DNA of 64,000 nt from Psammoneis japonica. Lineage: Eukaryota. The stretch's first letter is position 1, and each line of letters starts with the position of its first letter. Shown here one piece after another: positions 4,578-26,085 of this stretch. Under the pieces are notes generated by a model. The model had not been told where the DNA came from. It did no database searches and was given only the letters and a program-made list of their open reading frames with translations. The DNA is taken from assembly GCA_008632985.1 (NCBI GenBank), contig QPGO01000087.1:248001-312000 (forward strand), in the 5' to 3' direction. The translations under genes were made by a program, and so were the position numbers.

Positions 4578-5378
4578 CTAATCCACTTTGTTTGGTCTAG
4601 CATACAAATTAATTACAGACTTGGCCATTCTTCTAGGGACCAACTTTGACAGCGTTTCCTCCGCGGATTGGTTCTTGTCACAAAGCTCACGAATCAAAGT
4701 TGAAGATATGTGATTGTATTCTGGTTTACCTTCCAAGTAGTTTGTCGGAACTGGCCACCAAAGGGGACCTAGCAATAGGGGACCCCAGGTATTCAAAATC
4801 TGCAAGCTTCGTTCGTCTTGTCCATCCTTCTCCCAAGTACGAATTCCTCGAAAAAAGGTTGTCCAACCCTGCTTTTTTGCGTGACGCCAAATGTATCCCT
4901 GCACAACTACAATGCCAGAGTAATAACAACAAGTTGAATAAACTATTCCATGCAACACACACATTCCAGTGAAGTACGTTCTCATACCTTCCACACTGAT
5001 GCTATTTGCATATTCACTTTCTTGAATCATTTGTCGAATGAGACCGGCTCTTTCGTCAGGCGTAACTTGATAAGTTTTATCCGGATTGACTCCCACAACC
5101 GCAACGACCCGTTCATACCTGCAAGCCAGGTATTCGAGCATAGCAAGATGGCCGTTGTGCGGTGGGTTGTAGGAACCAGCCAAGACGACAACACGACGCT
5201 TGTCTCGTGATCGCTGACTTGCCGAGTCCGGAAGCTTCCATGGATACGAAACGATTGTGGGCCAAAGGATTGGTGGAATCAGCATCAACACAGCTGTCGC
5301 GAACGATGCCGCAGAAACGCAAGCAACAACCTGCCACCACTCCAGCGATCCCGAAAGAAATGACATGGAGGAACCCAT
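4578..5378 (-). CDS. coaD: Phosphopantetheine adenylyltransferase (CoaD-like cytidylyltransferase) with N-terminal TM segment
   Basis: VLAGSYNPPHNGHL (HxGH), VGVNPDK, FFRGIR, ISSTLIRE motifs. In-frame GT-AG intron 4907-4987. Confidence 0.85.
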   Translation of the reverse strand: MGSSMSFLSGSLEWWQVVACVSAASFATAVLMLIPPILWPTIVSYPWKLPDSASQRSRDKRRVVVLAGSYNPPHNGHLAMLEYLACRYERVVAVVGVNPDKTYQVTPDERAGLIRQMIQESEYANSISVEGMRTYFTGMCVLHGIVYSTCCYYSGIVVVQGYIWRHAKKQGWTTFFRGIRTWEKDGQDERSLQILNTWGPLLLGPLWWPVPTNYLEGKPEYNHISSTLIRELCDKNQSAEETLSKLVPRRMAKSVINLYARPNKVD

Positions 5379-5706
5379 ATCGAGTTTTATCGGCTGGTCC
5401 AACGAGTTCAAAGTGAGCTTCAGAAAACGAAGCCAAATTGCTGTGTACCGGCAAACCTCAGCGTTCAGCGTGTTGCAACTCTTCAACAACTCAACAGCAT
5501 GTCATCGCGCCATGGCCTCAACACGCTGCGCGCGCTACCGGTACCGGCATGGTGCGTCATGCGTCTCATTCGACTCAACATCTTTTCTGCCTTTTCTTGG
5601 CCTCTTGTTGCCTTCTTGTTCGCCATGAGCCATCATACTCAACACCGCAGAGCAAACGCAGATCGCAACAGCAAGCTAAAAAAGCACGCCAATCAATGAC
5701 AGCTTA

Positions 5707-6720
5707 GTGTCGCATGCCACCAAGGAAGACATGGCTCGCCTGGAAGCACCCGATGCTGCCGCGAGAGCTCAAGCCACCGAATCAGGCAAAAGCCATGGGA
5801 AAGTCAAAGGCGGTGTTCGCTGGGTGACAACTCAAGGGTTGCAGAGTGAAGCAGGGAAGAAATTGAATGGCATGCTTGGAAAGGTGCTGACTCAAGAGGC
5901 GAACGATGAAGGACGGCATCAGCTTCAAGTGGACGGCATCAAACAGATGAAGCTTGGCTTTTGTGCACCCGCCAATTCGGAAAATGTCCCACAAGCAGAT
6001 TTGACAAGAGTGTGCCATCTTCCAAGTGATGGAGAACAGGAAATGCAGCAGGTCTTGATCTTCCCAAAAAGCCATCATTTGTTTGGAGGCTGTCCTCCTC
6101 TCATGGTTGAGAAAACCAAACCATGTCGAAGCTTGCATGATTGGGCTGAGTGCAACAATGTGTGGGCAACGTGGCTCAAGATTGAGCCACAGAGTGGCTT
6201 TGCACCTGCCGAATGGCAATCCTTTGCAGGGCCGGTTTGTGTTTGTTGGCCAGGTGGAGCCACTGATTTGTCTGGGGATGGGATGACAAGGATGCCACCA
6301 ATGAGTTCTTGAGTGCACTGTTTTGGATGGGCGACAGGCAGATGGACCAGCATTTGATCCACACACATGGTTGAACCCCGGTTTCTTCCTCAAGTTTCTT
6401 CGGGACCTCAAACATGCGAGGGAGCATTCTAACATGGGCTCAGCTTTGGAGGGTCTGACCATTGTTGATTCATTGGACAGGACAGTTGTGCTGCAGAACT
6501 GGGCTGGCACAGGTTGTGTGGCAGCAGTCTCTTTCCAGAGATGAAAGGCGGCATTGTTGAGGCACTTTGTGATGACAAACTGTTGCACAGCAAGATCTGC
6601 ATTGTCACACTCTTCAACTCCATCATTTGGCAAGATGGTGTTCGTTGGGTGACCATTCAAGGGCTTCAGAGTGAGGTGGGGGGGGACACAGCACCTTTTG
6701 TGAGTTGCTGAATTTCTTTC
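5707..6720 (+). pseudogene. Hypermutated (TpA/CpG-depleted) copy of a hypothetical-protein gene
   Basis: VxxQGLQSEAGKKLNGxLGKV...GRHQLQV and WATWLKIEPQSGFAPAEWQS motifs with no Tyr, broken frames and an internal repeat (5812-5849 vs 6637-6674). Confidence 0.6.
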
Positions 6721-7109
6721 GAACCTTCGCTGGCATCATGAGAGATTTGGGTGTGTTTCGATGAAATGCAAAGAGCGACTTCTGTCAGCTGGCTAACTCT
6801 TCTCTCTCTAGTAGAGAGAGAGGTTACCTCTGCTGCTAGCTAGAGCCACTTCTAGAGTAGAGCTCTAGAGAGCAGCGCTGTACAGTAGAGAGACATCGGC
6901 ACTTCGTTCGTACAGTAAAAGCAGTGGGGCGGCATACGACGCGACGGGCAGACCGACCCGCGATCTGTTTGGTCGTGTTTCCAGTTTTGTGTTTTGGGTT
7001 TGTTCGAAAAGGTGCCGCGAAAACAACACAATCCGTGAGTGACCACAACATTTCACAATACAAGTATTGGACTGCGGTCAAGACAAGATAACCTCAGATC
7101 AGCAAGAAT

Positions 7110-7742
7110 ATGATAATCTTTGGTACAAGGCATTTTGGCGGAACCGACAGGGTGCCCGGACTGTTTCATGTTTCGACACGATTCTTTCACATTGATTTCA
7201 TCCCTCTGGTGCCCATCGGGAGCTACTTGCTACTGGAGGAAGGTTCTACTGGCATGGCCTCAAGGGGTATTGAAATAGAACTGAGTTGCAAGTCCATTCT
7301 AATCGCCTGGGCACGTTTCTTTGGGTTTGCTGCCGCATTTGGCACTTTTTGCTGGTTCCTGATCTGCGTCTCGGACGATGAAGTTAGCGCCTTAAACACC
7401 GGGGTGGCTTTTTGCGCCTTTCTAATGGCCACCATGATTACTATTTTTCTAATGTGCAACAAATGGATGCGAAACGCGAGCTATCAACGTGCCACCGAGC
7501 TCTGTTCAAAATTGGGGCCCACAATTGGGCCGTTGGCGCAGCGAATTGTAGATGACCACTTTGGGCAGGCGGGATTTTTGCCTGTAGCCGTGGAGATCGA
7601 TGATGACAAGGACTCCCTGCCAATTGTTAGAGTTCCAATGAATAATGTAGAGTTGGTGGAGACTGAGGACCAAAACGAAGACACTAAAGCTCCTCCGGAA
7701 AGCACTCAATCACAAGCTGATGGTTCGTTAGAAATTGTCTAA
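7110..7742 (+). CDS. Hypothetical membrane protein (MIIFGT...FFHI.FIPL.P N-terminal family, two further TM helices)
   Basis: Intact 210-aa single-exon ORF with normal codon composition and hydrophobic helices. Confidence 0.75.
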   Translation: MIIFGTRHFGGTDRVPGLFHVSTRFFHIDFIPLVPIGSYLLLEEGSTGMASRGIEIELSCKSILIAWARFFGFAAAFGTFCWFLICVSDDEVSALNTGVAFCAFLMATMITIFLMCNKWMRNASYQRATELCSKLGPTIGPLAQRIVDDHFGQAGFLPVAVEIDDDKDSLPIVRVPMNNVELVETEDQNEDTKAPPESTQSQADGSLEIV

Positions 7743-8273
7743 CTTCAGAGGCTTTGTGATGCCGAATGTTCCCTATCGTAGTCGTTTGTAAATACTGCAT
7801 TGAATACACAAACAGTTTGGTACCTTGTGACTCTAACCTCAAGCTTCACAGATGTAGAATGCACGTACACGTGCAATTAATGTCGTATTTCCTTTTTGTT
7901 TTTGCACAGCCGATTACTCGAAGTAGCCTATAACGCCTTTGATGAAGCGTAATGAATACGAAGATCAAATAAATCGAATCAAATACAGTGTATGGAACGA
8001 AACAATAGGCCCTAGCTAGAGGCTACTAGTAGTAGATAGGAAGGCGGGAAAGGTGAACTGGACGGTGAAGGAGAAAAAAAGGGCGGGATCGTCGTCCATC
8101 CCTCGTCCGCCAGGTTTCTCTCCTCCTTTATTCCCAACGTCCAACGTGTCACGAGACGACGATGACATGAGAGGCGATGCCCTGCAAAATCGACGCCCGT
8201 GATCTGTTTCTGTCATTATCAGAAGCTCGCTAATTCGCTGCTCAAGAGAGTAGCTTATGAAAATGAAAAAAGA

Positions 8274-10384
8274 ATGAGCCAAACTAATGACGACGAGCAA
8301 AACATTTCGACAACTACTTACTCCGGCTATTCTTGTGTGGTGGTCGCCGCCGATGAAGAAACTCCTTTTTCAACCCGAATTGTTGCATCGGCTGAGGAAT
8401 GGTCAATTCTTCTTGATTCTGAATTAGGTGATAGCGTGAAAGTAACTCCTTTGATAAGACCAAGTTCTGGCGACGCTGGTCTTTTTGCCTTTGCCTCCCT
8501 CCCCACAAATCAGAATAGTCTAGAAGACCAAGTTCCAAACACGCGAGCAACATGCTTGGCCATGGCATGTGGGTTGTTCTCTTTAAGGTTCCTCGGGAAA
8601 GTAATTTTGGTTCGCTGTCGTGCGTTCTTGACTGATGAATTCAAGACAATCAAAGATGAGGAGAAATTTGTATCCCTCACGAGCCAAGAAGTTGCGGGCG
8701 CATGCTTGTCACCGGATTTAAGACACAGCATCCAGAAAATTCTTGTCGGTGATTCAATGCGCGATAATCAGACAAGCTTGGCATCACCTTCTTGGCTGGC
8801 GAACGCTTCTCAACCCAACTATCATGATGCCTCCACGATGGCCCGGTTAGCCACCGTCATGTCCCCAACTAATAGTGAGCCTCTCGCAGAGGATGATTCC
8901 AGTGCCACCTCGAGTTCTTCGATTCAGCCAAGCGGAGAAACGAAGGACACTCGGAAGGACGAAACGTATCAGGAACTTGAATCCAACCTCAATGACAATA
9001 AGCACTTTATTGCTCGATCTTCTCTTTGTCTGCATTGTCGCGGTCCAACGAGCGTTCTTTGTCCGGATTGCAAAGGCGCGTATTTCTGTGATAAACCACG
9101 AACATGTCGTGAAACTGGGTAAGATGATACCGCAACGTTTCCATCCAAATACTTCTCAGATGATTGAATCCTTTCTGCTGAAGTATTTAGCTTATACCTC
9201 CAATTCTCTGTCCTTTAAGGTGGTCTCATACTTGCCTTTGTCGCACTTGGAAGCTCTATTGTGATCGTCGGTCTGAATTATCCTTGTTTCCTTTTGATAG
9301 CTGGCATAATGAGCTGTTAGAGCGCCAGTGCCAGCTATCTGAAGAGCCCTATTGTAAATTCCTGGAACGACTGGGAGTTTCATTCGAAACCGGGTGGTGG
9401 ACAACGGAAAGTGATGGATGGTCAGGCGGAGAAAGTCAAAGTGCAAAGACAATTGATATTTCTGTCCGGCGTAGTTTTGCCAATGGGTTTGCTCCTGTCA
9501 AAGACTTTCCTGAAGAACGTTACGTACAGCCGGAGGATGTCGAACGCTGCCAAGGACGGGAACCTTTACATCGAAATCGATGCGGACTCTTGCTCGTGTC
9601 GTCGTGGCAGCAGTATTACGAGTTGAGAAATATACCTCTTTCGAGTCCAGTGGCTCCATTGTTAACATTTCCTCTCACTCTGTACTACGCCATTTCGAAA
9701 TATGGGGAGGTTCCCGTGACGGTGTCGTGTATGCTAAAGCGACCACTTCGTGTTCACGTTGTTGGAATCGAAAAGGAACTCAACTTTATGGACATTTTCA
9801 AGGAAGTTGGCTTTTTGCTTCCAGAGGACGTGCAGGTAATTTGAATCGCGACAAGTTTCAAATGGGCTGGCATATGCTATCTAAGCTTGCCTGACAGAAT
9901 AGATCATTTTCTCACTCAATCATTCTTCAAACTGAACACTCTCTAGGTTGAACTCGTATTTGTCGTGAGAGAAGACATGCTGCCAACAAAGTTGAAGGAC
10001 AGTCAATCTACGATTGAGATTGACCTTACGACAAACCTGACATTAATCCTTGTGAGCGGAACCTACGGTGACAGCTTGGATCCCAATTTTGATTGCGGAA
10101 GTGGTGCGCCCGACATGGTTGTCGGCTTGAATGCGGGTTTGTTTGCATACGAGTCGTGGCGAAGCGTTGTCTCCTATCTGCATCACCACAATGGAGTGGT
10201 GGGCGTTTTCACGGATTACAATGAACACAGTGGACAAAACTGCGCAAGCATTGGTGGTGCCAGGGAGAGTCTTGTTGTCAATCCCTTTCGTCAACCGAGG
10301 GCAATGAAAACATACTGCATGAATCTTCCTCAGTTTAGCAACGGCTTTATCTACGTATACAATGAGCAGGAGCTAGATATGTAG
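8274..10384 (+). CDS. MYND-type zinc finger / MSS51-like (ZMYND15-like) protein
   Basis: CLHC..CPDCKGAYFC..C...W.H.C.C finger across intron 9119-9219. SWQQYYELRNIPLSSPVAPLLTFPLTLY and VHVVGIEKE. Second intron 9836-9946. GLNAGL...W, NPFRQP, SNGF C-terminal motifs. Confidence 0.85.
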
Positions 10385-10461
10385 CTTAAAGGTAGTAGCA
10401 GAACATTGTGTTTCTCTTGCGCCTACTAGCGTTCTTCTAGTTTAGCAAATACACCCGTACA

Positions 10462-11579
10462 CTACTCTTCGTCTGGAAGCAGGCACTTATCTGCGACATA
10501 CGCTCCAATCGGAGCACCAAGAAGGGGTCCAACCACGTACACCCACCATCCCTGAAAGGCAATCTTGCCCCACCCCGCCATGCCGGCAACGATACGGGGG
10601 GCAAAGTCACGAGCAGGATTGAATCCGGCCTGCGTCAGTGGCGCAATCACGCAAATGAGCGCCCCCACCGTGATGCCAACAAGGGGCGGAATCAAACTGG
10701 AGTCCTTGACGGTATCGTTTCGTGGGTTGGTGAGCGAAAAGACAACAAAGGATAGAACCGCGGTACCAAAGGCTTCTGCCAGCAACGCAATCGGCCACGT
10801 GATTGGAGCTCTGTGCACACGAAATGATGTGTAATGCAAAAATTGAAAAATAAGCCGAGGAAATGTATATCAGCAACGAAAACACGTGTGGTTTCCCCGT
10901 ACTCACGCAAAGTACTCCCCAAAGCACTTTGCACTCGCCACACTCGCGGTAGCACCTCTCACAATGCTATTTGCCTTTTCAAATTCTGCAATCTTGCTAC
11001 CAAACAAAACCAGATTCATTCCCGCCGCAAGCACGCCACCGGCCAATTGTGCGAGACAATAGGGAATCACCTTGGTCCAGCCAAACGCCTTGTTTGGTCG
11101 CAGCAGAGCCAGGCAAACGAAATGGCTGGATTCAAGTGAGCACCCGAAACGGACGCTGTGGTGGAGATTGCAACAGTCACGGCAAAGACCCACACGGCGG
11201 CAATTTGAAACAAACCCACCAAAGCATTATCGTACACGACAGACATTACGGATCCAGTGCCGAGCGACACTAAAAGAAAAGTCCCCAGGAGTTCCGCCAG
11301 CATTTCGCGTCCCAGATTGGAATTGTTGGTATTCTCGCTTTCATCCTTTGACCCTGCTCGCAGTCCAAGTGTATATTTTATCAAATTGCTGCCTTGATTG
11401 CGAGTTGTCGTCAGAGGCTCGAATTTGCCTCTATTGGAAGCGTCCTGTTGGATCGATCCGCGATGAGCGGAAGCTTGACGGCAATGCCTCGACGTGACCG
11501 AAAAGGCTGCCGCAGCCGACGATCCATTTGTCACTGCCGCAAGCAGCAGAATACACGATGCCAACATGGACCTCATCAT
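10462..11579 (-). CDS. MIP-family aquaglyceroporin with bipartite plastid-type presequence; apparent 1-nt frameshift near 11112
   Basis: AELLGTF, SGAHLNPA, AEAFGT, GFNPARDFAPR, WVYVVGPLLGA. Intron 10811-10906. Signal peptide followed by AAAF-S. Confidence 0.92.
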
Positions 11580-11814
11580 TTAGCATTTCTCTTTTACAAA
11601 ACCGTCACAACCCCACTGTCATGAATGGCGAGATCGACTGGAAACTAAAATGATGAGTAAAAAAAAAGAGTCAAAAAGATCGCGATCTTTTTGCGATCTT
11701 CACGAGAAACTACTGCTTCACCCGATGATGCGCAGTTGCGCGCCATTGGGATTTGGTGTCGTGGTGGCACTTTTTGTTGTCAATTTGCATGTTGTGCTTT
11801 CCGAAGACAATGTA

Positions 11815-13700
11815 CAGATGGTTGACACACATGTGATGTTTGGATGGAGATGGCTCCACCAGTGCAGTGGATGCATTCTCCCAAACCCAAAGCTGGTGGA
11901 TGGTGGCAGACTGAAACTGTCACCAGCATTTCCTTGTTGTTGGCTCTTGTTCAGAAGAATGTGAGGTGAGCCACCACCAAGGGGCTTTGTCAATCTTCTC
12001 TTGCGTTGGTCTGGGGCACTCTCAACTCATGCATGTGGTCAATGAAGGTTGGGAGGTGTTGTCCATGTCAAGAACAGTGTGGGAGTCTGCTTTTCTTGTG
12101 TGCTGACCCTTGTGTCAAGAGAGCAGTCATCATGTGCGGCAGTCATGTTTGGATCTGGTGAGGCCGGGCCGCCCCACTTCTGTGCCCTCTCCAAAGCCAA
12201 AGTGCAAAGATGACACACATGCAATGTGAGGAGCAGAGACACCTCTGTCTGCCAGCAGAAGCACAGTGCAGGGGGGCACTCCCAAGCTCCCACAAAGCCA
12301 GGGCCACAAGCACACCACGTCCACAATGTGCGCTGGAGACACACAGCTTGTGGGGCAACTTCTTTGCTTGGGAGTCAGGAAATGGGCTGAGCCAGTGAGA
12401 AGTTGTCATGCTGAAGTGAGCCAGGCAAAATTTTGCACAACTGGTCAGCTTGCAGGTGTGCAAACAGCACAGCATCTCATGGATGATGCGACACCTGCTG
12501 CTCTGCAGCCTGTGGCATCACAGCAACTGTGAAAACCTGCAATCTCACAGGAGGGCGGGCACACCCAGCAACAACCTGTGTGCTTCACATGTGATCATCC
12601 AGCACACTGTGCATGTGTTGGGGCAGCAAGAAGGGGTGCTGCAGTTTAAAGCCTCTTGCAGCTTAGAAAAAAAGCTCCTTTTGGTGCAAGGCAACAGTGA
12701 GTGAGCAAACCTCTCCTGGGAGTGCTTGTGAAAATTTTTGGCAACAAACGCCACAGGGCACTGCAAAACATGATGGCACACAAACTGTCCAACTTGTGCT
12801 GATTGATGCACATGACAGCCACTGGCATGTTGTGTTCTGATGACACACCAAAGAAATGCATGTGGCCAGCACTTGAAACTTGAAAGAATTTGGAGTGTGT
12901 GGCTGCAAAATCCACTGTGACCTGAACACATGACATGACTTGAGAGAGCGCCCTTTGAGAGGTGATGCACAACAATCATCACATGGCTGCTCAGACAACC
13001 AGGACAGGCACAGCCATTGGACAGGTGCTCCACCTTGCCAGGTGGCTGTTGGCTGTGCAGGTGGTGGTGTCAAGCACAGCTTGTCCAGGCTGGCCTTGAT
13101 CAGCCTCTTGCAGCTTGGAGAAAAAGCTTTTGGTGCAAGGCAAGGCAACAGTGAGTGATCACAAGAATTCTCCTGGGACATCAGAGGCCCCACAACACAG
13201 TGGTCATTGCTGTTTTTGATGTTCATTTTGCCTTTGAATTTTGTTTGTCTCACTCATTTAAATGTGATGATTAAACTTGAACGGTGTTTGCACAATGCAA
13301 GGTGTTTGCATGTTTCATGAGGAATTTTGTCATCTGTTTGCATTGACAACATGTCCCAAAGCAACTTGCATTTCCAAATGTTTTGTGATTGAATGTTTGA
13401 GTTGCAACAATTGATCCTCTTTGCTTTTGATGCTTTAGATTTCAACTTGGTTTTTACTTTTTACACCCCATTTGTTTGTGTGTCACCATGTGTGCTGGCA
13501 TCGTGTCTGCACCCAAGTCATCTCCACGTGTGCACTCCCTCTTTGCATCTCACTTTTTCCTGGAATTCTGTGCATGTTTCTCCGCCATGTGTTTAGTGCT
13601 TTTTCTACATGAGCCATTTTCTGTGCATTTCACAACAGTGCACCCTCTTCCCAAAATCAATTTTACCAGGCAGAGTGTGTGCTGTTGTGATTCATGCAAT
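11815..13700. mobile_element. Heavily hypermutated repeat-derived sequence, family not identifiable
   Basis: Near-absence of TpA and CpG. Contains a ~380-nt segment (12418-12790) repeated at 18102-18440 and partly at 13100-13180. Confidence 0.6.
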
Positions 13701-14949
13701 TTTTGCATGAGGAGCCACCAACGGATTTCTTCTGGCCATGGCAGTCAATGACTTCACCCCTGTCAGTGGACGAGGTTGACCCTGATCCCTCATTCATCTT
13801 TGCTGATGATGTCAATTTTGATGACACAGAATGTTTCACTGATGGTTTTGGAACGGAGCTTTTTGGGCCCAAGCTCAAGAGCACAACTGCCATGCATGCA
13901 TCCAAAAAGCAGTTTGTGGAGAGAACAAGCTGGTCACCCTCTCCAGCACTCCTTGCACTTCCCTTCCTTTGCCACAAGCCCAAGCTTTGTCACATTCCCT
14001 GCATTGCTGAAGTCATCCGCACAAACAACATTGTCAGGAAAACTTTTGGATGTCCCAATGTTTGGTCCCACATCATGACTCATGGTTGGTCAACAAAGAA
14101 ATCCTGCTGGAACAAAGGTGAGCATGTTCTTTGGCATCAAAATTTGGAGGATGCTCTTTGTTTCTACACCCCACCAGGAGAGACAGAAAAAGAAGAGGAG
14201 CACCATCGTGACCTTCACCGCAACACAAAGGTGATGGTGGAGTTTGTGTGCCAGATCATTGCCAGTGAGGACCTCAATGATCCTGTCTCAGGCAAGCCTT
14301 GTTTCCATTTTTCTACAGTGCAAAAGTCTCCAAGATCTGATTGACAACTGAGCACATGACCTTCACGGTGCACACTTTGTCATCAAAATGGTCATGCATT
14401 GTGTCCACTGCAAACCCCTGGACAGGAGCCATTGGTTCATGCAGATCTTTTGTGAAGTCGCCACCCAAAAGGAGTGGCACATTTTTGTCTGCAGCTTTCT
14501 TGTCATGTGCCAGTTGAGTGAAGTTGGTTCTGAGGAGGAAAAAGTCAAGGGCTTTCTTGGAGACAAACTCTGTTGCACCAAGGACATGGCAACAATGGAG
14601 GGCAATGCCGTTGTCGCCCGAGAGGCACACAACAAAGCAAAAATCAATGCCATGCGACAGCATGCATTTGGGAAGCGTTGTCCAAAGGAGCAACCCAGCA
14701 CATGATCCAGGTGCTCCAAACAGCTCACAATGCTGCATTGCCAAATGCAAGATCAGAGGGCTGGCCACTTGGATGATGACAAAAAAGGGGAGCACAATTC
14801 AAAACCAAACACAAAATTGGAAGGATTTGCAAAGATGGCACCTGCTTGCACGAAGCTGGCAAATGCTTCCTTGTGCCTGCAAAGCTGTTGTTCATTGTTT
14901 TTTTTTTAAGGATGTCTTCTCTGTTCCATTTCTTTCTCTCCAAAAGAGC

Positions 14950-17900
14950 CTCACAAGAAGACCAAGTCTGTTTCACGTGGCAGTTGTGGATTCCTTGTTT
15001 GGAATTTTTGCAACTTCAAACTGTCTGGTTGCCAGGTCAAAATCATCATCAAACATTTTGGGACCACCAGGGAATCTTTTTCCCTTCTGCATGACTTGCA
15101 TGGTCCAATGAGATCCACACACAGGGTCTTTCCCATGGCACTGACTTTGCACACTTGGGAGACAAATGTTGGCATTTGCTTCTTTTGTTTCTTCTTGAAC
15201 TTCTGGAGTGCAAAACATTTTTCAACACATGTTTTCACATGTCTGCACACATGGCAGACCACCACAAGTGTTGTGAGATTGTCTCTTCTGTTCCATTTGT
15301 GCCAGGATCTACCAGAAGGTGCTGCATGTGATGCCAATCTCTGTTGCTGACTTTTGTGACAACTTTGGTGCAACAATTTTGTTCTCCTGACATGTGAGCA
15401 TTTGATCTTGCTTGCCTCCACAAGAAGTCTTCACATGACATGTTACATCCAACAATTTGGAGAGAATGTCTTTGCCACATTTCTGTTTTGTGTGTGTCAA
15501 TGGAAAGACATTGTTGCAGGATTCAGGTGCAACCTTCTCAGCCAATTGTTCAGTGCCAAGGTTTTCTTTCACAGTGAGTCAGCTGATTGCATCTGCAACA
15601 ACACTCACCTTGCCCCTGCAGCAAACAAATTGTGTTGGGGCTGCATTCTTCAAGACTCTGTCTGCAGCAAAATTTTTATGATCCACAACTGTTTTTGTCT
15701 GTTGGCCAAACAACACATTTTGGAACTCCTTGGGGGTTTCCACCACAGACAGCAGTTCTTTTGCCATTGTGCTGGTGTGGCACATCTGTGCTTCATTTGG
15801 CTTTTGGCTGTGGAAGGCCCCAGGTTGGTTGTTCTGTGATGTGGCCACACCAATTGAGAATTGCTTGCACCAGCATGCATCTCAAAGGGTTTGCCAAACT
15901 TTGGACACAATGATGATGTGTCTTTTGACACAGCTTTCTTCACTTTTTTGAAGGCTTTTTGTTCCATGCTCATCCGTTGCCACATGACCTTCTTAGATGA
16001 GGTGATTTTGACTGGAGGAGCAAGTGTGTGAGAATGTTGAGGCCACATGTCTTGATGGCAGTCAATCACGCTAAAACACCCCCACTTTCTCAGGAATTGG
16101 TTGTGTGCCTTTTCATGAAATGTAGAAACCCAGACAGCCTGCTTTGGACTTTGCAAAAAAGGACATTTTTGCACTGACCTTCAAACCGGCTTGTTCAAGC
16201 CACGAGCCACATGAACACCATTTCAAGTTTTTGGAGGTGTCCTTTGAAGTCACCTTTTGTTGGAGTGTGTCATCATCACATGTTTTGACAAACTCTAAAC
16301 CCACCATGAGCTCTCACTTGTGTGCTCTTGGAAAATGTTTGGAGCTTGACAAATTCCCGTTGGTGGGAGTCTGCAGCACTCACATTTCCCCCACGGCATC
16401 ATGATTGTGCACAAACAACACATGCACTTGGTGTCAACTCAATGTGGTGACATCTCATGTTCAAATCAAGTGACATTGCACACATGAAGCCCTTGAGCTT
16501 CTGAAGCATGTCTTGAATGTTGGACAGAGGGTGTGGAGCATGTGCTGCCAAGTCTCCAACTCAGCTGACAAAAGTTGGACAAGAACCAAACTCTGCCATT
16601 TTTCTCAGTTTAAACACAAAGTTTGCAGAGCAGTTTGTTTTTCTTGAGACTCCTGTCTTGCAGAGTCTTTTGACTTCCTTTGAAGCAGTCCCCTTAAGAC
16701 CTGTGGAACAGGAAATGGTTTTGCATGATGTTGGGTTGCACTGAATTTTGGTGCAAGATCTGCCAGTTTCCCTGTCCATGCATCTGAGGCACCATTGAAA
16801 AGATTTTCAAATCTTTCTGGGAGGAAGTTCAATTGCTTCTGTTCCTCTGGAGTGAGGTGTGTTGCTGCTGCAGTTGCATCATTGAGGTCAGCAGCATGAT
16901 GGTCAGAGTCAAGGATCCTGTTGACCCTGTCATTTTAAGAGGACTTTTCATGGCCTCAATGTGATCGGCAATCAGCTTGAAGACCTTGGCACAAAAAATG
17001 CATTGACATTTTTCATTGGTGTGGTTGCATCTTTTTAATTTCCTCATTTGCAAAGTCCAGTGTGACTCCAAGACTGCTCATTGAGTTGTGTCCCATGATC
17101 ATGTCATGCTTGCATGAAGAAGAACACCGTCTTCTCAATCAGTTTGTGCTCATCAAATTCAGGCAATGAGAGCTGAATTTTGCATTTGCTCCCTCCCTTG
17201 GTTTCCCAACTTTTGGTGGCAGATGCGTTGGCTCTTAATCTCCATGCAAATTGTGCAAAATTGTGGTTGACAATGTTCCACATCAAGAAGAACACACAGA
17301 GGCTCATCTTTCTCTTTCCCCAAAGGAAGCCTTCACACAAACAATGATGCTGGACCAGTGCAAATTGCTTTGGCCCTTTTTCCAGGCTTCCCAACATCCA
17401 GCAAGGCATGAGACTCCTTGACAGGTGCCAGTCATTTTTCAGATTTGCTGTGTGTCATTCTGTTGAATTGGCAGTTTTCCTCACTGAGAGCATCAGAGTC
17501 ACAATCTTTGCCTTTGTGCTTTTTGTTGTTGTTCAAGGAACTTGTGTTGAGAGATTTGTTGACTGCCTGTGTGGTCATGGCACTCAACTCTTCCTTGTGA
17601 AAAGCATTTTCAGTGTTGTGACGTGACCCTGTGTGATTGCCATTTGAATGATGCCATTTCAGGTTTGGCTCAGAATTGTCGCGGCATTCCTTTGCCAGCC
17701 TTTTAATGACCCAGCATTCATCCACATGTTGTGAGTGGCCTTTTCACAATGAATGCACCACTTGCAGATTGGCGACCATTTTTGGCACCGTGTTGGGGCC
17801 CACCTTTGGTTTGGGACCAGGTTTGCTGTCAGCATCATTCTTGACATGAGTTTGGTCTTAAACATGCCCTCAATGACCTCCAAACATTCCAAGAACTCAA

Positions 17901-19250
17901 CCAACTTGTTGAGGGCATGGACTGAGATTTCAAAACTGGCTGATGTCACCATCAACAAGGTGCAAGGTTGCAGACGATGTCCTTGAGCTCATGTTCATTC
18001 AGATGCTGCTTTTGCTTGAAGGGAGGACAGAACTTGAAGTCTTCATAAATTTCCTGAGTTCAAGCTGAAATTTCTCAAATCTTCATCATTTCTGGTTTCT
18101 TGAGCCAGGCAAAATTTTGCACAACTGGCTCAGCTTGCAGGTGCACAAATGGCACAACATTTCATGGATGACACAACCTTTGGCATGACAACAAATGTGA
18201 AAACCTGCAATCTCGCAGGGTGGGCACCCAGCAACAACCTGTGTGCTCTTCACATGTGGCAATCCAGCACACTGTGCATGTGTTGAGGAAGCAAGAAGGG
18301 GTGCTGTGGTTGAAAGCCTTTTGCAGCTTGGAGAAAAAGCTTTTGGTGCAAGGCAAGGCAACAGCAAGTGACCAGCCACAAGAACTCTCCTGGGAGTGCT
18401 TGTGAAAATGTTTGGTGCAAAAACATGATGGTGCACAAACTGCTCTGTGAAACAGTTTTCTTGAAGTCTGAAGACATGTGCAAGAACACACAAAACTCTG
18501 ACACATCTCATGCACTGCACTCAAAGAACAAGCGTGCAAACAGAAAGAATCACGAAAAGTGAAAATTGTGAGATCAAATTTTGTTCAGCCATTTGCAGTT
18601 TCTCTGAAGAAGTTCTCAATGGCCCCAGGTCTTTGCACTGTGTCTGCAGATCAAAGGCCATTTGGAGCAAATGATCATGACAACAGATTGCCTGGATGCA
18701 ATCAACATTGACATCTCACATGTCAACATTGTTGGGTGATTGCACCTGCAATTTTTGACAGCATTTCTGATTTTGAAGTGCACTGGTTGTTTTTGAAGGC
18801 TCCATTGGCTTCTTTGTCATCTGCATTCATGGCCTTGGTCTCAAAAACGTGGAGAGCATCTCCCTGCAACAATGCACTTGTGAGACAGAAATCATCAGCT
18901 TGCTTCTGGATGTTCTGTCCAACCAAGACTTGACGGTGTGTCTTGAGGAATTTGATGTGCTTGGGAACGCCTTGCTTGTTGTGGTGCTTGACATTGATTG
19001 CGTGAGTGCAGCTCTTCTTGTTTTCAGGGTGAAAGCACTGTTCCATCTTGAGGCACTGACTCGGTTTGAGCATCTTTGGCTCAGAAATTGACTCCAAAAA
19101 AAGGAAAAAAATTCTCCTGCTCGATGAAAGACATGGCAGCACAGCAACATGAGGTGAAAGCTTCAATTTTTGGTTTTTACAATCTGCGTTGTGTGTGTGC
19201 ACAATGCACCATGCTTGAAGAAATTGTGCAAACAAAAGCAGAAAGAATCA
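14950..19250 (-). mobile_element. Decayed Ty3/Gypsy LTR retrotransposon (gag-protease-RT-RNaseH-integrase), integrase truncated
   Basis: gag (QVLVGQNI...ALLQGDAL.VFE; ELKDIV), RT (AKPFPVPQ..KEVKRLCKTGV; FVKT-CDDD for YxDD), RNaseH (KPFE.H..AS..QL; AF.S.K.N.AQ....KELLSVVET.KEF), integrase (PGTN.TEETISQHLWW; LCVDLIGP; FEVAKIPNK). Domain order RT-RH-INT is Gypsy-type. Confidence 0.92.
18102..18440 (+). repeat. Second copy of the 12418-12790 segment, interrupting the Gypsy gag
   Basis: Colinear match beginning gagccaggcaaaattttgcacaactgg and ending ctctcctgggagtgcttgtgaaaat...gcacaaactg. Confidence 0.9.
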
Positions 19251-20467
19251 CAAAAAGTAAAAAGCTCTCAATGGCCTGAGGCATTTGCGCCATGTTCGCA
19301 GATCAAAAGCCATTCAGAGCATCTGACCATGACAACACAGATTGACCCAGTTGACGCTGACAACTCATGTGCCAACATTGTCGATCAACCATGTTTGCAA
19401 TTTTCAACATCCGATCAAATCTGTGTGATTAATCTGTCCTTCATGTGCGCCCACAATTGCAACATGATCAACATGTGCAACAACATGCAACTGTGATGAA
19501 TGTGAGTGTTTCTTCCTGCGCAACAACACACAATGCATTCATTGCCAAGAAAGGAGCAGCCAGCAATGTTGCCACCTCAGCTGGCTTGTCACTCCGGATG
19601 AAAATGCATGAGCAGCTGGTGTTTCTTGTGAGTGGATGAGATGCTGCAACAAGCACAAGATTGTGCTTTGAGGAAGCCCAGCAATGTCTTGGCGTTGCAG
19701 AGCAGCGCAGCTCTTTTTGGAGAGCTCTGCTCAACATGGTGCCAACAGGAGGGTGGTGCTCTGCCACAAGTGCAGTGTGCAACATGAGCAAAATTTTCCT
19801 TGTGCTCAAAAATGCACGTCAGAGGAGCATGTGCTGGAGCAAGCACAAGGTGTGTGTTGAGGAATGGTCGGTGGGTTGGAGCATGTCTGGTGGTGTGGCG
19901 GACAGCTCCACAAGGTGCACAATGACAGCGAGCCAGACCAACTCACAAGCAGAAAATGTGCTGTCAAGATCTGTGCCCTGGCTCTTGGCTCTCCCAAAAC
20001 ACACATCATTTTTGGGCCCAACAGTTGCATGGTGTGGTGGTGGGCAGCAAATGAGCATGGGGCCCTTCATTTTGGGAGTGCACCCCAGTCTCTCTCAATC
20101 ATGTTGGGAGCCAGCAGTGATGGCAACGAAAGGTTTGGCACTGCGTTCTTGCTCCGTCGGTTTACGACAACCCTTTGGTTGGTAGAGTTTGTGCTTGCAG
20201 TTGCAAATCAGACACTTTGCACATTGTGTGCACACAGTGTGACATCGGCAGAAGATGACCCATGGATTGTCATCATGAGCGAGCTGCTCTCTACTGGCAT
20301 TGCGAAGAACGCACCGGCACGCACATTACATTCGGTGCCGGTGCGGTCCCGCATGCATTGGACAGCACTGTAGAGTTCGTCCGATTGGGCTTAAATCTCA
20401 TTAAACATGGGCTTAAATCCTCGCATGTCTTGTGTCTCCTCAAAGCATTCGCGCGGTACGATGATCG

Positions 20468-22009
20468 ATGATCGCCTCACATAATCCACGAAATCAACAG
20501 CAGCAAGCAATGAGAACGATGCGAACCTCTCTCGCTGTTTTGTTGGTCTTGCTCCTCCTTACAGGCGTGTGTTGGGGAGAAGCTACAAAAAGGGATCTAC
20601 ACTGTCGATACACTGTCGACATCGAGGAAGAAGTTGACGAAGGAGGTCCCCATGACAACGACGGTGGACCGTCGAATGACACTGTTGTGTGCATTGAAAG
20701 TTCCATGGCATCTCATGTGGACAAGATGGCCGAAGTGTTTGTGCTTGAGGTGGATGGATGCCACCAAATTGGGAGAGAGTGGTCGACAGATGGGATCTTC
20801 TTCAGTCAAAACAACAAGAAGATCTCACCAACGGTCCAGAATCACATCATGGCAAAACCAAAAATGTTTCTTGACGGCGAGCTCACTTTCGAAAAGAAAA
20901 TTAGACTAGAAGAAAATGCTGCTGGACACGGGCGATGCTTGGTGCACAATGTAGATGCGACCAAAAAGATTAGAAAAAAACGGAAGAAGAGAAGGACGAG
21001 AAGGCGCAAGTTCTCTCTGAACAACAAGGGGCATTGCAGAAATTGTCTTGCAGATGATGCGGATGCCAGACGGAGAACACTGAAATCTGGATCTTTCATC
21101 CGTAACATGATTCACAGTGTCACGTTTGAAACCTGGATGAACATTCGCATCCAAGAGGTGATGCAAGAAGATTGCTCACTGGTGACAATTTTCAGCACAA
21201 CCTTCTCAAGAGTGGAGAATGGACAAGTGACCCATGCAAGTGGTCCGTGCACTCCTGTAGAGCAAGAGGCAGATCTAGAAATCACTGCTTGCGGGACCAT
21301 GTCACCATCACATGCGCCGACAATCGGCCAGCCAGAAACAGAAGAACCATCAACAACACAACCAACATTCCCACCGACAAAAGGACCGACGGAGTCGCCA
21401 ACAACATTGCCCGCAACTGCACCGACGACATCACCTGCCATTGTCTCGGTCACGTCACCAAAAGCTGCTCGTTGTTCCTCTGAGATTTCAGTGAATGGGG
21501 GTTTTGAAGACGGAAACCTGAATGGTTGGACACAGTTTCCATCTCCGGGCAGCACCCAGACTGTTGGCAGTGGTGTCCCTTTTAACCCCACCGAGGGTAA
21601 TTTTGCAGCAAAAGTGGCAAACCCTGCGCGGGCCAGCGGGAGTGTCATCAAGAATGCCAATCTTGGCATGGGTCTCGTGAAAGCAAACGATCCCATTGCC
21701 GTTTCGTTTGACGCCCGCGCGGACGTGCTGGGCCCTGGCGCCTTGGTCTTTGCCGAGTTTTTCTCCGAGCTTTCGGGTGGCGGGACATCGAGAGAAGAAA
21801 TTCTCGGAGGAGGACCAATTCTTTCCGTGTCTAATCCTGGCAAATGGAAATCATTCTCTTTTAGCACGACTGCAGGAACAGACGTTTCAGGTGGTGTCAC
21901 ACTCCAATTTGTCGTTGTAACCGGAGGAAACCAGAGAAGTAAAGCCACGGCATGCTTTGACAATGTCAGTGTCCGAGTCGGTCACTCTTGTAGCAAATGG
22001 CAAGGTTGA
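20468..22009 (+). CDS. Secreted protein with Pro/Thr-rich linker and C-terminal carbohydrate-binding (CBM4/9-like) domain; open but TpA-hypermutated
   Basis: Signal peptide, CRNC..DD.D.RR motif, PTxxPT linker, VNGGFEDG...GW...FDNVSV domain. Only 1 Tyr in 513 aa. Confidence 0.75.
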   Translation: MIASHNPRNQQQQAMRTMRTSLAVLLVLLLLTGVCWGEATKRDLHCRYTVDIEEEVDEGGPHDNDGGPSNDTVVCIESSMASHVDKMAEVFVLEVDGCHQIGREWSTDGIFFSQNNKKISPTVQNHIMAKPKMFLDGELTFEKKIRLEENAAGHGRCLVHNVDATKKIRKKRKKRRTRRRKFSLNNKGHCRNCLADDADARRRTLKSGSFIRNMIHSVTFETWMNIRIQEVMQEDCSLVTIFSTTFSRVENGQVTHASGPCTPVEQEADLEITACGTMSPSHAPTIGQPETEEPSTTQPTFPPTKGPTESPTTLPATAPTTSPAIVSVTSPKAARCSSEISVNGGFEDGNLNGWTQFPSPGSTQTVGSGVPFNPTEGNFAAKVANPARASGSVIKNANLGMGLVKANDPIAVSFDARADVLGPGALVFAEFFSELSGGGTSREEILGGGPILSVSNPGKWKSFSFSTTAGTDVSGGVTLQFVVVTGGNQRSKATACFDNVSVRVGHSCSKWQG

Positions 22010-24225
22010 GTCGAACTCGAGCTTTTGCGATGACACGAAAACTGTGCCGGCCAGAAATGATTCCGCCACACAGCCATGAAAAAGAAGAACCAGCGTTGAG
22101 TGAGTTCGATCCCCTTGCGGTAAAAAGCAAGCGCACTTGTGCAATGCTCCGCAGTCACTTCCTTGCCCCTCTCAATGCTGCCAGTGCCCAATTCGTGCGC
22201 TCTACCGCATTTCCTTCGTGAGTCCACCTGCATCCTCTTGCGTCGTCCGCTTTATCTTGCAAACTTGTTTCTTGCCGGCAATGTGGTGCGTCACTTTCGC
22301 AGCTTGAAGAACGAAGCCTCCAAGTCCCTCGAGTTGGATTGCATCGAACCTCGACTATGCAGGCTCATTGCAGGCATGGGTGGGGCTGCACAGAGTGACT
22401 GGTAGAATGGATCTCTCAGCCGCTCCTGCCAGACACGTTTTAGTTGGATCCACCCTTCGAATGACTTGATCATGGAATCATGGCATCGCACACATCCTCG
22501 CTGACAGGAGCAACTTCATTTCCTGATCCACTGTCATCGCCTTCTTTCCTTCTCTTGGCGACTCTTTGCATCAGACCGAATTTCTGTTGATCGCAACAGC
22601 TCTCTGGGGCACCACTTTTGACAGCCTTGAACTGGCCATTGGCAGGTGCCTGCCGCTCCGTCTTCTTTGGTTCCACCTCCTCCCCCCTCTGCAGATGCTT
22701 TGTCCATTTGACTCGATCGCATTGCCAAGCACCGCGTCCCTCGCGCGCAAGGACGAAATGATCACACCGTTTTGGTTTTTGTGCATGAGGAGGACGTTGG
22801 ACAAGCATTCCACAAATGTGAAAAAGAGCTGCAACTCCAAATCGTAGTGGGGTCGACGCTGGATTTCCAATGACAGTTCGTGTCACATGAGTTGTTGACA
22901 CATGACATTTATGTCGGCCTGGCATTCGAGTGTAGATTCAGCTGTCTCCTGAGGATTCCAAAACAGCTCACAATTGCACGCCATTCGTTTTCTTTTCCCT
23001 CTTCCAGCACTGACTGAGGCATGGAGCGCTTGCTCGGGAAAATCCGTCACACCGCAGGTTGCGGTTGACCATTTTTTGGGGACAAACTTTGACATCCGCT
23101 CCATGGCGCCTCAACATGGATGTGGTCATTGACCAACGCCGCCAGTGCAAGTGAACAAGTGAGTTCAGTTGAGCGCTGGCATGCGCCGTTGATCTTGAGC
23201 GGCTTTTTTGGCATTCATTTAGTCGTTTGCTGTCAAAGCAAGTAAAATGATTGCAAGCGACAACAAAGCACAAGATGCCAACAAGGACCTCATCATCATT
23301 CTTGATGCATTGTGTAGCTTTCGCCTAACATGCGAAGCTCTTGCCAAAGACCAAAGATCTTGCAAAGATTGCAAAATATCGTTCAATTGATCAACATACA
23401 TTTACTTAGAGTCAATATAAAACATTTAACTGTTCAAGTCCGACCGTTAAAAGTATTTAGCACAGTCGACTTTTCCTTCCACGACCAAATTGTCAACTCG
23501 CAGCGCGGTTACAGTAGCTATGATATGAGGCTACGACTAGCACAATGTGCAAAATAGGCCATAACGAACTGAATATTTTGTATTTTAATATATAGTTAAT
23601 GTCTGGATGATCGGTATGTAAAATGACTGCACATGACTCCTGCTGTAGAATTTGTACCAGTCTACGTAATTAGGGCTCTACGAACTGAAGTCATACAGAA
23701 ATGTCTGGTGTTAAGTAAATTCAAATGTCGGAGCCGCCAAAATGGACCGAAACGCCGGCCACGTCTTTTAATAAAACATTCGAACTTGTTTATTGATTAT
23801 GAAGCAGTCGGAGTTGAAAAAGTAATATCAAAATTTGAGTTACAATTTGAATAGGAAACATTCAAAATCTTCTAATTGTGTTGCGAGTATCGATGTTTGA
23901 GTACAAATTGTATGGTTACATCTGTAAAAATGCCTAAATACTTGCTAAAAACCGTTATCGTTAAATATCGATGTACAAAAAAAGCTATACGGGTGTTCGG
24001 GACGTTTTTTACAGTTCACATTGTGCTAGGCGTAACTCCATATGACTGCTGGCGCTGTGAGCTGTGACAAAAACGAAGAGGAAGGAGGAAGCAAGAGTGT
24101 GTGGGTCCGTGTGTGTTTGTTCTCGAGCCGCTTATCAATCGGTCGTTTCGCCACTAACTATTCGTTACCCGGTTTGATTGATCAAAAAATTGACAAAACG
24201 CACAAAACAAGAATATAACACAACT

Positions 24226-24864
24226 ATGCAGCGTCGCAAAGTGGATGGAGCATCCCACACTGCCGCTGCGACATTGCAGCATCCGCAGGACGAGAAAAAT
24301 AAGCGACCTCGATCATCTCGATCCGTCATTCGTATTGTCAATCCCAACCGCATCTTGACGTGCCTCTTGGCCGTGGCGGCATTTTTGGCAATTGGAACGA
24401 TTTTGTTTCCAAAGGAATTAAGACAAGTCGAAGACACCACGGCACAAACCACAAAGGATCTCGTCAACAATGCCTACCGCGTGGAACAGAAAATGGAAGG
24501 ATGGCTTATTGACCATGAATTGCCAGCTGCAAAGCAATTGCAACAACAACAAGAACAACAACAAGATCCTACTGCAGCTATGCAAAAACAAACATCCTCG
24601 TGGGTAGACGGCGAAAAGAAACTAAAACAGCAGCTTCAAGTATTGGCCAAGCGACAAGAAGAAGGAATCGATGTGGGCGTTCCCGTATTGACACGCTATC
24701 TTGGCGAAGATTTTCCTGCGTGGGCCGGCAAGGATGTTGATGAAAAAGAGTGGACGGCCAAGGTAAAGGCAAAGTACGAAGAAATGGCGCAAGAAGAAGT
24801 GAAATGGAAAGAACGAGTGAGGTTATTCATGGAAGAAGAAAAAAAGAAAAAGCAGAGACGCTGA
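24226..24864 (+). CDS. Hypothetical single-pass membrane protein with coiled-coil C-terminus
   Basis: Intact ORF with TM ILTCLLAVAAFLAIGTILF, poly-Q and WVDGEKKLK..L..L...Q..G...GVPVLTRYLG. Confidence 0.75.
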   Translation: MQRRKVDGASHTAAATLQHPQDEKNKRPRSSRSVIRIVNPNRILTCLLAVAAFLAIGTILFPKELRQVEDTTAQTTKDLVNNAYRVEQKMEGWLIDHELPAAKQLQQQQEQQQDPTAAMQKQTSSWVDGEKKLKQQLQVLAKRQEEGIDVGVPVLTRYLGEDFPAWAGKDVDEKEWTAKVKAKYEEMAQEEVKWKERVRLFMEEEKKKKQRR

Positions 24865-24989
24865 GACATTATAGTTCGTCTTTTTGTTTACGTAACTACC
24901 CACCGCTACACATTTTTGTCTTGCTACCTTTTTAATGTTGACACCAATGAAAACTACAAAACGATTTAAGGTTAAGTAGAAGTCGCTCT

Positions 24990-26085
24990 CTAGCTTCGGT
25001 TCTTGTTGTGGTTCTTGTAATCGGGCAAGAAAGGAGCAGCTGTGGCGAACAGCTCGGTGAAGAAGTTATAGGGGAGGAAGAATGTACCCATTCTCGTACC
25101 AACGGACATGCCTATGGATGAGTCAGTTTCAATAGAAGAAAGATAAGAAGCAAAAGACAGTGAGAAACGACGTTCTCGAAAAAGACAGATCATCAAACGG
25201 AACAATATCAAACTCACCTCCCACATCCCGCAGGGCACAAACACCAATGCTACGGAAAATCTCATTGGGAAGAGCCTCGGGAGGCACTGCTGACTTTTGA
25301 GCCGATTCCATCATTTCGATCTTGTGCTCCACCTTGGCATAAAAGTTGCTATCAACGGGCGACGGATGAATGGCACAAACATCGATACCCAAATTCTTCA
25401 CTTCAATGTGCATGCAGCACGCCAACTGCGACACAAACGCCTTGGTGGATGCGTACATGGCGGCAAAGGGCGTGGGAATAAAGCCCGCCATACTAGATGT
25501 AAAGACAATGCAGCCCTTTTTCTTGCCGGAAACAAGCTTTTGCACAAAGTGGTGAGCAATATTCACGGCCGCCGTGGCGTTGCACTCCATATTGGCCTGA
25601 ATTTTCCCAATGGGAGTCTGGTCAATAAAACCCGTGACAATGAAACCAGCGTTATTGAAAACAATGGGTATTTCAATGTCTTTTGTGGCCTTTTCGATTT
25701 GATCCATGTACTTGACGCCGGGGCTAAAGGTGCAGGCGACTGACCGGAATTCCAAGTCGGGAAAATGCTCTTTCAATTCCTTCATGGTTTGTTTGAGAAA
25801 CTCGTCATCCAAAGACACAATCACCACGTTTAATCCTTGACTGGCAAGTTTAAAGGCGAGTGCTTTTCCAATACCACTACCGCCTCCTGTGACGAGCGCC
25901 CACTCGGCATTGTACCGCTTTTTCAAGTCCGGAACGGGCCGAAACGCCATATAGAGCTGAGGTAAGCTGTACAAGATGAGCCAAATCGTCGTGGGAAGCG
26001 CAAGTACGCATAGTGCTATAAGCATTGGGGAAAAGCTTGCACTTGCAGCACAAGTATCGGCGTCGACCGCCGCGGCAATCATCAT
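24990..26085 (-). CDS. Short-chain dehydrogenase/reductase (3-ketoacyl-CoA reductase / 17beta-HSD-like)
   Basis: WALVTGGGSGIG, FNNAG, TSS, YASTK. Intron 25112-25217. Confidence 0.92.

Follow-up and report, generated by a model that had tools for sequence, protein, structure and literature searches.

To our knowledge, point mutation directed at transposons is known in three forms: C→T change by the repeat-induced point mutation (RIP) of fungi, C→U editing of complementary DNA (cDNA) by APOBEC, and RNA editing by ADAR. RIP changes C to T at CpA, creates TpA and lowers GC content. The RIP of ascomycete fungi is described in PMC7882544, and APOBEC3 is, according to PMC4866542, a host deaminase that mutates retroelements in a dinucleotide context. 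ADAR A-to-I hyperediting, with a net A→G outcome, is described for retroelements and retroviruses. Here we analyse a window of 64,000 nucleotides from Psammoneis japonica (contig QPGO01000087.1, positions 248,001 to 312,000 of the forward strand; coordinates below are those of the window) in which TpA has been removed, region by region, by a TpA-specific A:T→G:C change that is symmetric between the strands, is separable from CpG decay and has hit an otherwise intact element.

The locus shares much with RIP. As there, we see dense, transition-only mutation of transposons on both strands, in a dinucleotide context and in blocks beside normal genes, and the elements are dead. RIP is also said to leak into flanking DNA, and TpA loss here extends past the cores of the affected domains. 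The polarity, however, is the opposite: TpA is destroyed (observed/expected ratio, O/E, 0.04–0.2), CpA and TpG are made, and GC content is unchanged. Unlike RIP, the TpA process cannot create stop codons, and frames stay open. RIP proper is thus rejected: both strands are affected, as RIP would have it, but its defining C:G→T:A change at CpA with a rise in TpA is absent. RIP is also set off by sequence duplication, ahead of meiosis and through RID/DIM-2-type methyltransferases; in the window, stretches at single-copy depth are affected and one multi-copy repeat (23516–24050) is not.

Methyl-CpG decay is present as a second layer, with CpG O/E down to 0.13–0.16 in two cores and a matching gain of TpG and CpA. 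It cannot, however, remove TpA, and zones with a TpA O/E of 0.12–0.13 keep CpG at 0.88–0.91. As a whole explanation it is therefore rejected, TpA loss being present where CpG is intact, and the second process that the first-pass annotation of this DNA had postulated beside it is borne out. That annotation had also called for a check of the literature; in the full-text literature open without subscription, we found no description of TpA-removing hypermutation and none of transposon-associated TpA loss, the papers returned being on fungal RIP, ADAR/APOBEC or unrelated subjects.

Composition, strand and context of the TpA loss

Dinucleotide O/E values were obtained from sliding 1-kb counts and from exact counts at the coordinates proposed by the first-pass annotation, with 24100–52000 as background. 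In that background, TA stands at O/E 0.56, CpG at 0.99 and TG/CA at 1.19/1.16; the lowest TA value over its 71 1-kb windows is 0.34, and the gap between successive TAs averages 26 nt with a maximum of 307. The depleted regions, to which no strand applies, are as follows.

5710–6790: small domain; 1 TA in 1081 nt (O/E 0.02), CpG O/E 0.41, depth 0 in read run X2 (see below)
11815–20200: core domain 1; TA O/E 0.05, CpG 0.16, TG/CA 1.76/1.93; degenerate multi-copy Ty3/gypsy-like retroelement
20201–23390: milder TpA-only zone; TA O/E 0.20, CpG 0.83; contains the open reading frame (ORF) 20465–22006
52750–55000: TpA-only zone; over 53000–55000, TA O/E 0.12 and CpG 0.91
55001–60900: core domain 3; TA O/E 0.04, CpG 0.13, TG/CA 1.94/1.87
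60901–64000: TpA-only zone; TA O/E 0.13, CpG 0.88; probably the 5' part of a Ty1/copia-type retroelement

The first-pass annotation had noted by eye that 11815–12646 and 58482–59380 lack TA while TG and CA are saturating, and exact counts agree: the first stretch (832 nt) has no TA, 103 TG and 103 CA, with a CpG O/E of 0.14, and the second (899 nt) likewise has no TA, with a CpG O/E of 0.18. The longest TA-free runs measure 1132, 986, 901 and 834 nt. Its view that AA runs are untouched also holds, since AA/TT O/E is 1.18–1.26 in the domains against 1.17–1.18 in the background; GC content, at 0.46–0.54 against 0.48, is unchanged as well. Of the three domains that it delimited, the TpA loss is real in each, but 11815–23390 (73 TA, O/E 0.09; CpG O/E 0.37; TG/CA O/E 1.67/1.77) is not one domain: it divides into the core 11815–20200 and the milder zone 20201–23390. 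The third, over 53000–64000 (51 TA, O/E 0.08; CpG O/E 0.53), is nested, its core 55001–60900 lying between the TpA-only zones 53000–55000 and 60901–64000; this core has no recognisable protein domain and includes an internal tandem duplication (56450–56660 and 56661–56870).

The two depletions also end differently. CpG edges are sharp, near 11750, 20250, 55000 and 61000. Low TpA runs on to 23250 and begins near 52750, with TA density falling gradually from about 51500, so that TpA loss reaches 2–3 kb past the CpG-depleted cores. Within the window, TpA depletion occurs without CpG depletion, and CpG depletion never occurs without TpA depletion.

The missing TpA and CpG can be accounted for by the surplus of TpG and CpA, with the gene-rich background serving as the original composition. 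Per kb, the gain of TG+CA against the loss of TA+CpG is 88.5 against 84.7 in the cores, 21.8 against 25.3 in the TpA-only zones, 32.1 against 31.7 in 20201–23390 and 59.4 against 69.4 in 5710–6790. The sum of the four pyrimidine–purine (YpR) steps is therefore conserved in every zone, as transitions among YpR steps predict. In the cores 11815–20200 and 55001–60900, CpG contributes 47.9 of the 84.7 lost per kb; TpA loss amounts to 33–37 per kb, and is seen where CpG is intact as well. TG and CA are nearly equal in every zone (969/908, 677/745 and 229/269). Together with the even split of Cys and His described in the next section, this equality indicates that the change is equal on both strands, and inheritance by way of the sense transcript only is thereby excluded.

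Sequence context adds a further constraint. With background counts substituting for ancestral ones, surviving TAs number 6 against 318 at RTAY sites, 38 against 575 at mixed sites and 44 against 186 at YTAR sites (R, purine; Y, pyrimidine; chi-square P 2.6e-16). The flanks of TG and CA within the domains are roughly even, so TAs newly arising from TG or CA should not carry this bias. The survival ranking (T > C > G > A) tentatively points to a pyrimidine favoured 3' of the target A, with a strict requirement for a 5' T. Inside an ORF, conversion of TA to TG or CA cannot create a stop codon, while CpG decay can (CGA→TGA); consequently, the TpA-only zones keep long frames, of 816 and 514 codons, and the cores are split into short pieces.

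Read-derived contigs of runs X1 and X2 were compared with the window over 5001–25000, which covers the first domain. X1 may be the sample behind the assembly, so that its reads carry the sequence without implying another isolate. It holds 84% of sampled 31-mers of 11001–20000, and contigs at a k-mer depth of about 57 match closely: 1 difference in 776 nt at 11669–12444, no other letters and 2 gaps at 15572–16601, and 2 differences at 17252–18130. Within the domain, 13005–19674 is multi-copy (X1 depth 240–1400), and stretches at single-copy X1 depth are TpA-depleted too. On the point of reproducibility raised by the first-pass annotation, the first domain is reproduced by X1 contigs, although X1 may not be independent of the assembly. 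No contig of run X3 was placed on 5001–25000.

X2, a second run of the same sample, behaves like RNA: its depth is gene-dependent and it skips 10811–10906 with CT..AC ends, though its record does not state RNA. The skipped segment is a 96-nt intron in an aquaporin (MIP) gene, GT..AG on the minus strand, and the contig that skips it has a depth of 248. X2 covers the flanking genes, with depth 0 over 11671–20341 and 5668–7001, and no RNA run is listed as containing 11001–20000. At the edge of domain 1, within the MIP gene (11050–11568), 6 of the 8 listed differences have A or T in the window and G or C in X1 or X2, only one of them (11229) at TpA.

Retroelements within the depleted regions

The direction of the change is best seen in a reading frame of the third domain.

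61552–63999, plus strand: ORF B, an 816-codon frame cut off by the end of the window; gag part of a probably copia-type polyprotein

ORF B belongs to a large gag family, with 411 representative clusters at E ≤ 0.001 and relatives in a metagenome collection. Full-length environmental members of the family are Ty1/copia-type polyproteins: L012, L009 and L003 have the domains RVT_2, gag_pre-integrs, SH3_retrovirus and Pol_BBD, and with their gag they align to ORF B at E 1e-52 to 1e-90. In a Ty1/copia polyprotein, protease, integrase and the RVT_2 reverse transcriptase follow the gag; the window includes only the gag part of the ORF B element. ORF B has only 17 TA left in 2448 nt, and its residues comprise 0.7% Tyr, 4.0% Cys and 4.9% His.

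We aligned ORF B with 48 relatives and defined Tyr-consensus columns as those in which at least half of the relatives have Tyr, which gave 12 columns. At these, ORF B has Cys in 5, His in 5, Val in 1 and Tyr in 1, whereas the pooled relatives have 69% Tyr, 18% Phe, 5% His and less than 1% Cys. Cys or His in at least 10 of 12 columns, at p = 0.056, has a binomial P of 1.8e-11. Each of 43 well-covered homologues has at most 2 Cys or His at the 12 columns, and 32 ORF pieces from independently fetched metagenome loci have 0–1 Cys and 0–2 His. From the Tyr codon TAY, one transition leads to TGY (Cys) or to CAY (His); TAY therefore became one or the other.

The remainder of the protein is well preserved. 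Outside the Tyr columns, ORF B agrees with the consensus in 75.3% of 174 columns; the homologues average 72.8%, and 18 of the 43 score higher. It keeps Phe in 11 of 12 columns, Pro in 11 of 11, Cys in 7 of 8, His in 7 of 8, Lys in 6 of 7, Asp in 8 of 9 and Asn in 4 of 5. An A without a preceding T was therefore unaffected, and this copy is otherwise as good as its intact relatives. Five columns have Thr in ORF B and Ile in the plurality of relatives, two show Leu→Pro and one shows Ile→Met; such columns are few but, in this alignment, consistent with the TpA process.

The first-pass annotation had proposed A→G change at TpA on either strand from exactly such substitutions. Its Tyr→Cys/His claim is upheld by the 10 of 12 family-conserved tyrosines now Cys or His, and its proposal for both strands by the mass balance, the near-equality of TG and CA and the 5:5 ratio of Cys to His; the Ile→Met/Thr and Leu→Pro changes that it also listed are seen, though in small numbers.

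Nor is the family TA-poor or Tyr-poor by nature. Its mean Tyr content is 3.7%, with none of 151 relatives below 1%, and across 45 environmental loci the TA O/E of 1-kb windows never falls below 0.3, with a minimum of 0.31 in L011. The possibility that the family itself is equally depleted, named in the first-pass annotation as fatal to its proposal, thus falls away. L011, a metagenome contig of 1658 nt, is alone among the 45 loci in leaning toward the pattern of the window (TA O/E 0.40, CpG 0.37, TG/CA 1.65/1.55); its two ORF pieces have His at 1 of 8 and 1 of 2 Tyr columns, and no Cys.

In the ORF B element about 80–90% of TpA is gone while CpG O/E is still 0.88. If the element is methylated, TpA was lost many times faster than methyl-CpG, which would point to an enzymatic burst over slow decay.

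Core domain 1 holds older material, with the following recognisable parts.

15582–16180, minus strand: remnant of a reverse transcriptase-associated RNase H, two overlapping ORF pieces; PF17917 at E 4.2e-07 (15582–15881) and PF17919 at E 0.0062 (15653–16180)
12417–12787, plus strand: direct repeat resembling a long terminal repeat (LTR), left copy; partner 18101–18442
18101–18442, plus strand: LTR-like direct repeat, right copy; partner 12417–12787

The RNase H remnant and the LTR-like repeats mark this core as a degenerate Ty3/gypsy-like element plus debris. The remnant was the only transposon domain that Pfam returned among 143 ORF pieces of 11.1–20.6 kb, and 92 ORF pieces, mostly of 52.7–61.6 kb, returned none. 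A tblastn search of ORFs from the 45 metagenome loci against the window (E ≤ 0.05) matched ORF B only, leaving the domains at 12–19 kb and 53–61 kb unmatched.

The LTR-like repeats are identical in 294 of 386 columns, with 33 mismatches, and differ at 18 non-YpR positions in about 327 aligned sites, within a core whose CpG O/E is 0.16. Adjacent double mismatches are CA↔TG in 5 of 6 cases, which is what one palindromic YpR step leaves when two copies resolve it differently after insertion. At 15033/4 and 19567/8, X1 contigs of single-copy depth depart from the window by a double difference of this kind.

How the TpA loss may have arisen

A mutational origin of the pattern is strongly supported, by the mass balance, by the Tyr columns of ORF B, by the preservation of its other residues and by the ordinary composition of its family. 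We infer from these results a process that acts in place, is linked to silencing or repetition and depends on an enzyme. The reading that we prefer is directed hypermutation acting in place on DNA, to which we assign a probability of roughly 0.55. TpA would have been rewritten to TpG or CpA across transposon-bearing, untranscribed stretches, by A:T→G:C change on both strands equally, through a process that acts on duplex DNA where it lies, as RIP does, and reaches 2–3 kb beyond the CpG-depleted cores. In the likeliest chemistry, an enzyme would deaminate the adenine of the palindromic TpA step, the resulting hypoxanthine pairing as G, with RTAY sites favoured and YTAR sites relatively spared. 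A TadA-type deaminase and a genome-defence role, both put forward as candidates in the first-pass annotation, may apply here, as may a trigger by repetition. Methyl-CpG decay, distinct and much slower, would additionally have emptied the cores of older elements. The more specific proposal of an enzyme that deaminates adenine on either strand at duplex TpA of newly arrived or silenced repeats, as a RIP-like defence of opposite polarity, is possible but on balance doubtful.

Two further features bear on this reading.

20465–22006, plus strand: ORF for a secreted-looking protein with a CBM_4_9-like C-terminal domain
23516–24050, no strand assigned: miniature inverted-repeat transposable element (MITE)-like element with 34-nt terminal inverted repeats (79% complementary), TA-rich and CpG-normal

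The first lies in the milder zone 20201–23390 and is not a transposon. It has, by eye, a signal-peptide-like start, then a Pro/Thr-rich linker and the C-terminal domain, which is about 50% identical to bacterial CBM_4_9 / PEP-CTERM-associated proteins (Planctomycetota, Flavobacteriia); this suggests a bacterial origin for the eukaryotic gene. T|A at its synonymous codon boundaries has an O/E of 0.30, against 0.37–0.74 in 10 control ORFs. An X2 contig on 21175–23306 shows 62 differences from the window, and the TpA deficit of that 2.1-kb stretch is about 60 sites; over all X2 contigs, the step from window to read is strongly directional, being C→T 32 times and G→A 31 times but T→C only 8 times and A→G 9 times. 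Should the X2 contig read TA where the window reads CA or TG, an expressed gene would have been duplicated and its copy in the window hypermutated. The 97%-identical, seemingly expressed relative of 21175–23306 was not found in the protein database at near or shorter lengths, where the best identity is 56%. In 22481–22851, contigs of both X1 (depth 50) and X2 (26.5) skip 22482–22704 (223 nt) and 22751–22850 (100 nt), with non-canonical ends, which implies a further DNA copy or allele that lacks these segments.

Several points weigh against directed hypermutation in place. The direction of change is drawn from the mass balance and from 12 columns of a single protein family rather than from alignments of copies to a consensus. 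The ORF 20465–22006, compared with 120 homologues, adds nothing to it: its domain family is naturally Tyr-poor (1.2%), and the sole Tyr-consensus column is Phe in the window. It may also be that every CA↔TG double difference goes back to CpG and not to TpA. Among the differences between window and reads that were listed (40 of 464), those within the core consist largely of CpG↔TpG/CpA changes, with no TA↔TG/CA change that would speak of ongoing TpA loss. The zones 52750–55000, 5710–6790 and 11700–12417 may be unique DNA or old transposon debris, which leaves spreading in place a proposal. Finally, the MITE-like element, which is multi-copy (X1 depth about 325–760) and adjoins a TA-poor zone, is TA-rich and unaffected; not every repeat is hit. 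An X1 contig skips 23519–24040, which makes this insertion recent or polymorphic. Repeats that are short or very young would then escape, or else the process takes time or is tied to one stage of the life cycle.

The best-surviving alternative, which we nevertheless consider unlikely, is a slow regional bias of mutation or repair in silent chromatin, with no dedicated defence, accumulating over many generations in heterochromatin and at its edges. A thymine glycosylase or repair polymerase might fix T:G or T:hypoxanthine as C:G at TpA; another source might be a TET/JBP-type enzyme that modifies thymine to a mutagenic form such as hydroxymethyluracil (hmU) or formyluracil (fU). T→C changes can follow from oxidised thymine, and one idea holds that very-short-patch repair depletes CTAG in E. 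coli. The TpA-loss domains are soft-edged, reaching 2–3 kb beyond the cores, and a young MITE-like insertion left unaffected is what a slow process predicts. TET-type enzymes oxidise thymine (PMC11804724), and aberrant base-excision repair, in which human TDG excises T opposite damaged adenine in a TpG context, provides a precedent that resembles our case in yielding a context-specific T→C change by repair rather than by replication error (PMC4041421). That case differs in its context, TpG, and its product, CpG, and human TDG is, according to the same source, weak or inactive at TpA. ORF B is also difficult to accommodate under slow accumulation: it has lost about 80–90% of its TpA with CpG at 0.88 and non-Tyr residues kept, and the rate must exceed that of methyl-CpG decay many-fold if the element is methylated.

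Editing during retrotransposition, by an adenosine deaminase acting on element RNA and on minus-strand cDNA so that copies arrive already mutated, seems to us quite unlikely. Its appeal is that ORF B and the core bearing the RNase H remnant are retroelements, that ORF B looks mutated in one burst with CpG intact, and that TadA/ADAT-type enzymes act next to a 5' U. To yield Cys and His at 5:5 and TG nearly equal to CA, however, RNA and cDNA would have to be edited equally. TpA loss is found, moreover, in 20201–23390, with its non-transposon gene, and outside the LTR-like repeats, and the CA↔TG differences between those repeats arose after insertion.

Intrinsic composition or selection, with the elements or a donor genome avoiding TA, for instance because an RNase cuts at UA or because a nuclease or transposase targets TA, is very improbable. 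Avoidance would be strand-symmetric, both dinucleotides being palindromic, and RNA viruses do show a milder suppression of CpG and UpA. The O/E values of 0.0–0.05 seen here lie far beyond such viral avoidance, however, and selection on a working protein would not allow Cys or His at 10 of 12 conserved Tyr columns. Relatives have normal Tyr and TA, and unrelated adjoining sequences share the depletion. A sequencing, base-calling or polishing artefact at modified DNA is hardly credible: the domains are probably methylated and long-read callers err at modified motifs, but X1 contigs (depth about 57, exact 31-mers) match with 0–2 differences per roughly 800–1000 nt, and no such artefact would change Tyr codons at conserved positions to Cys and to His in equal measure.

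Other described processes each fail in a defining feature. GC-biased gene conversion is ruled out by a change confined to TpA with GC unchanged. ADAR hyperediting resembles our case in its net A→G outcome, but only sense-strand changes of edited RNA would be heritable, and ORF B has 5 Tyr→Cys (A→G) beside 5 Tyr→His (T→C); ADAR, moreover, also edits after a 5' A, and AA is untouched here. APOBEC editing of retroelement cDNA is alike in mutating retroelements in a dinucleotide context; it is, however, a C→U change on the minus strand giving strand-biased G→A, whereas the present change is A:T→G:C and symmetric. Pol eta, in the WA mutagenesis (W, A or T) of somatic hypermutation, makes A→G changes at TA. 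It should hit AA too; AA/TT stays at about 1.2 throughout, Lys is kept in 6 of 7 columns and Asn in 4 of 5, and the doubt already expressed about this candidate in the first-pass annotation was well placed.

Neighbouring sequence and significance

Away from the depleted domains, the ORF 39978–41393, without a clear Pfam family, contains tandem repeats over 40421–41373 (period about 168 nt, 75–80% identical). Rfam and tRNA scans of the window gave no matches.

Transposon-directed point hypermutation is known as a kind of process; there is a real chance that the chemistry here is categorically new. A process that clears one domain after another of TpA, by A:T→G:C change on the two strands of DNA, would add a fourth form, of different chemistry, to the three named at the outset. 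Should a duplex-DNA adenine deaminase be responsible, it would be the first natural one of which we are aware, and of direct interest for base editing.

The change also matters for annotation. Dead copies mimic intact genes, encoding odd Cys/His-rich, Tyr-free proteins in long frames kept without new stops. Because GC content is unchanged, GC-based and RIP-index screens would miss the affected elements, and a scan of TpA O/E would find them. If the defence reading is true, elements in this genome would be inactivated by erasing tyrosine and other TA-dependent codons, and the gradient into neighbouring genes, if confirmed, would be a source of accelerated change beside transposons.

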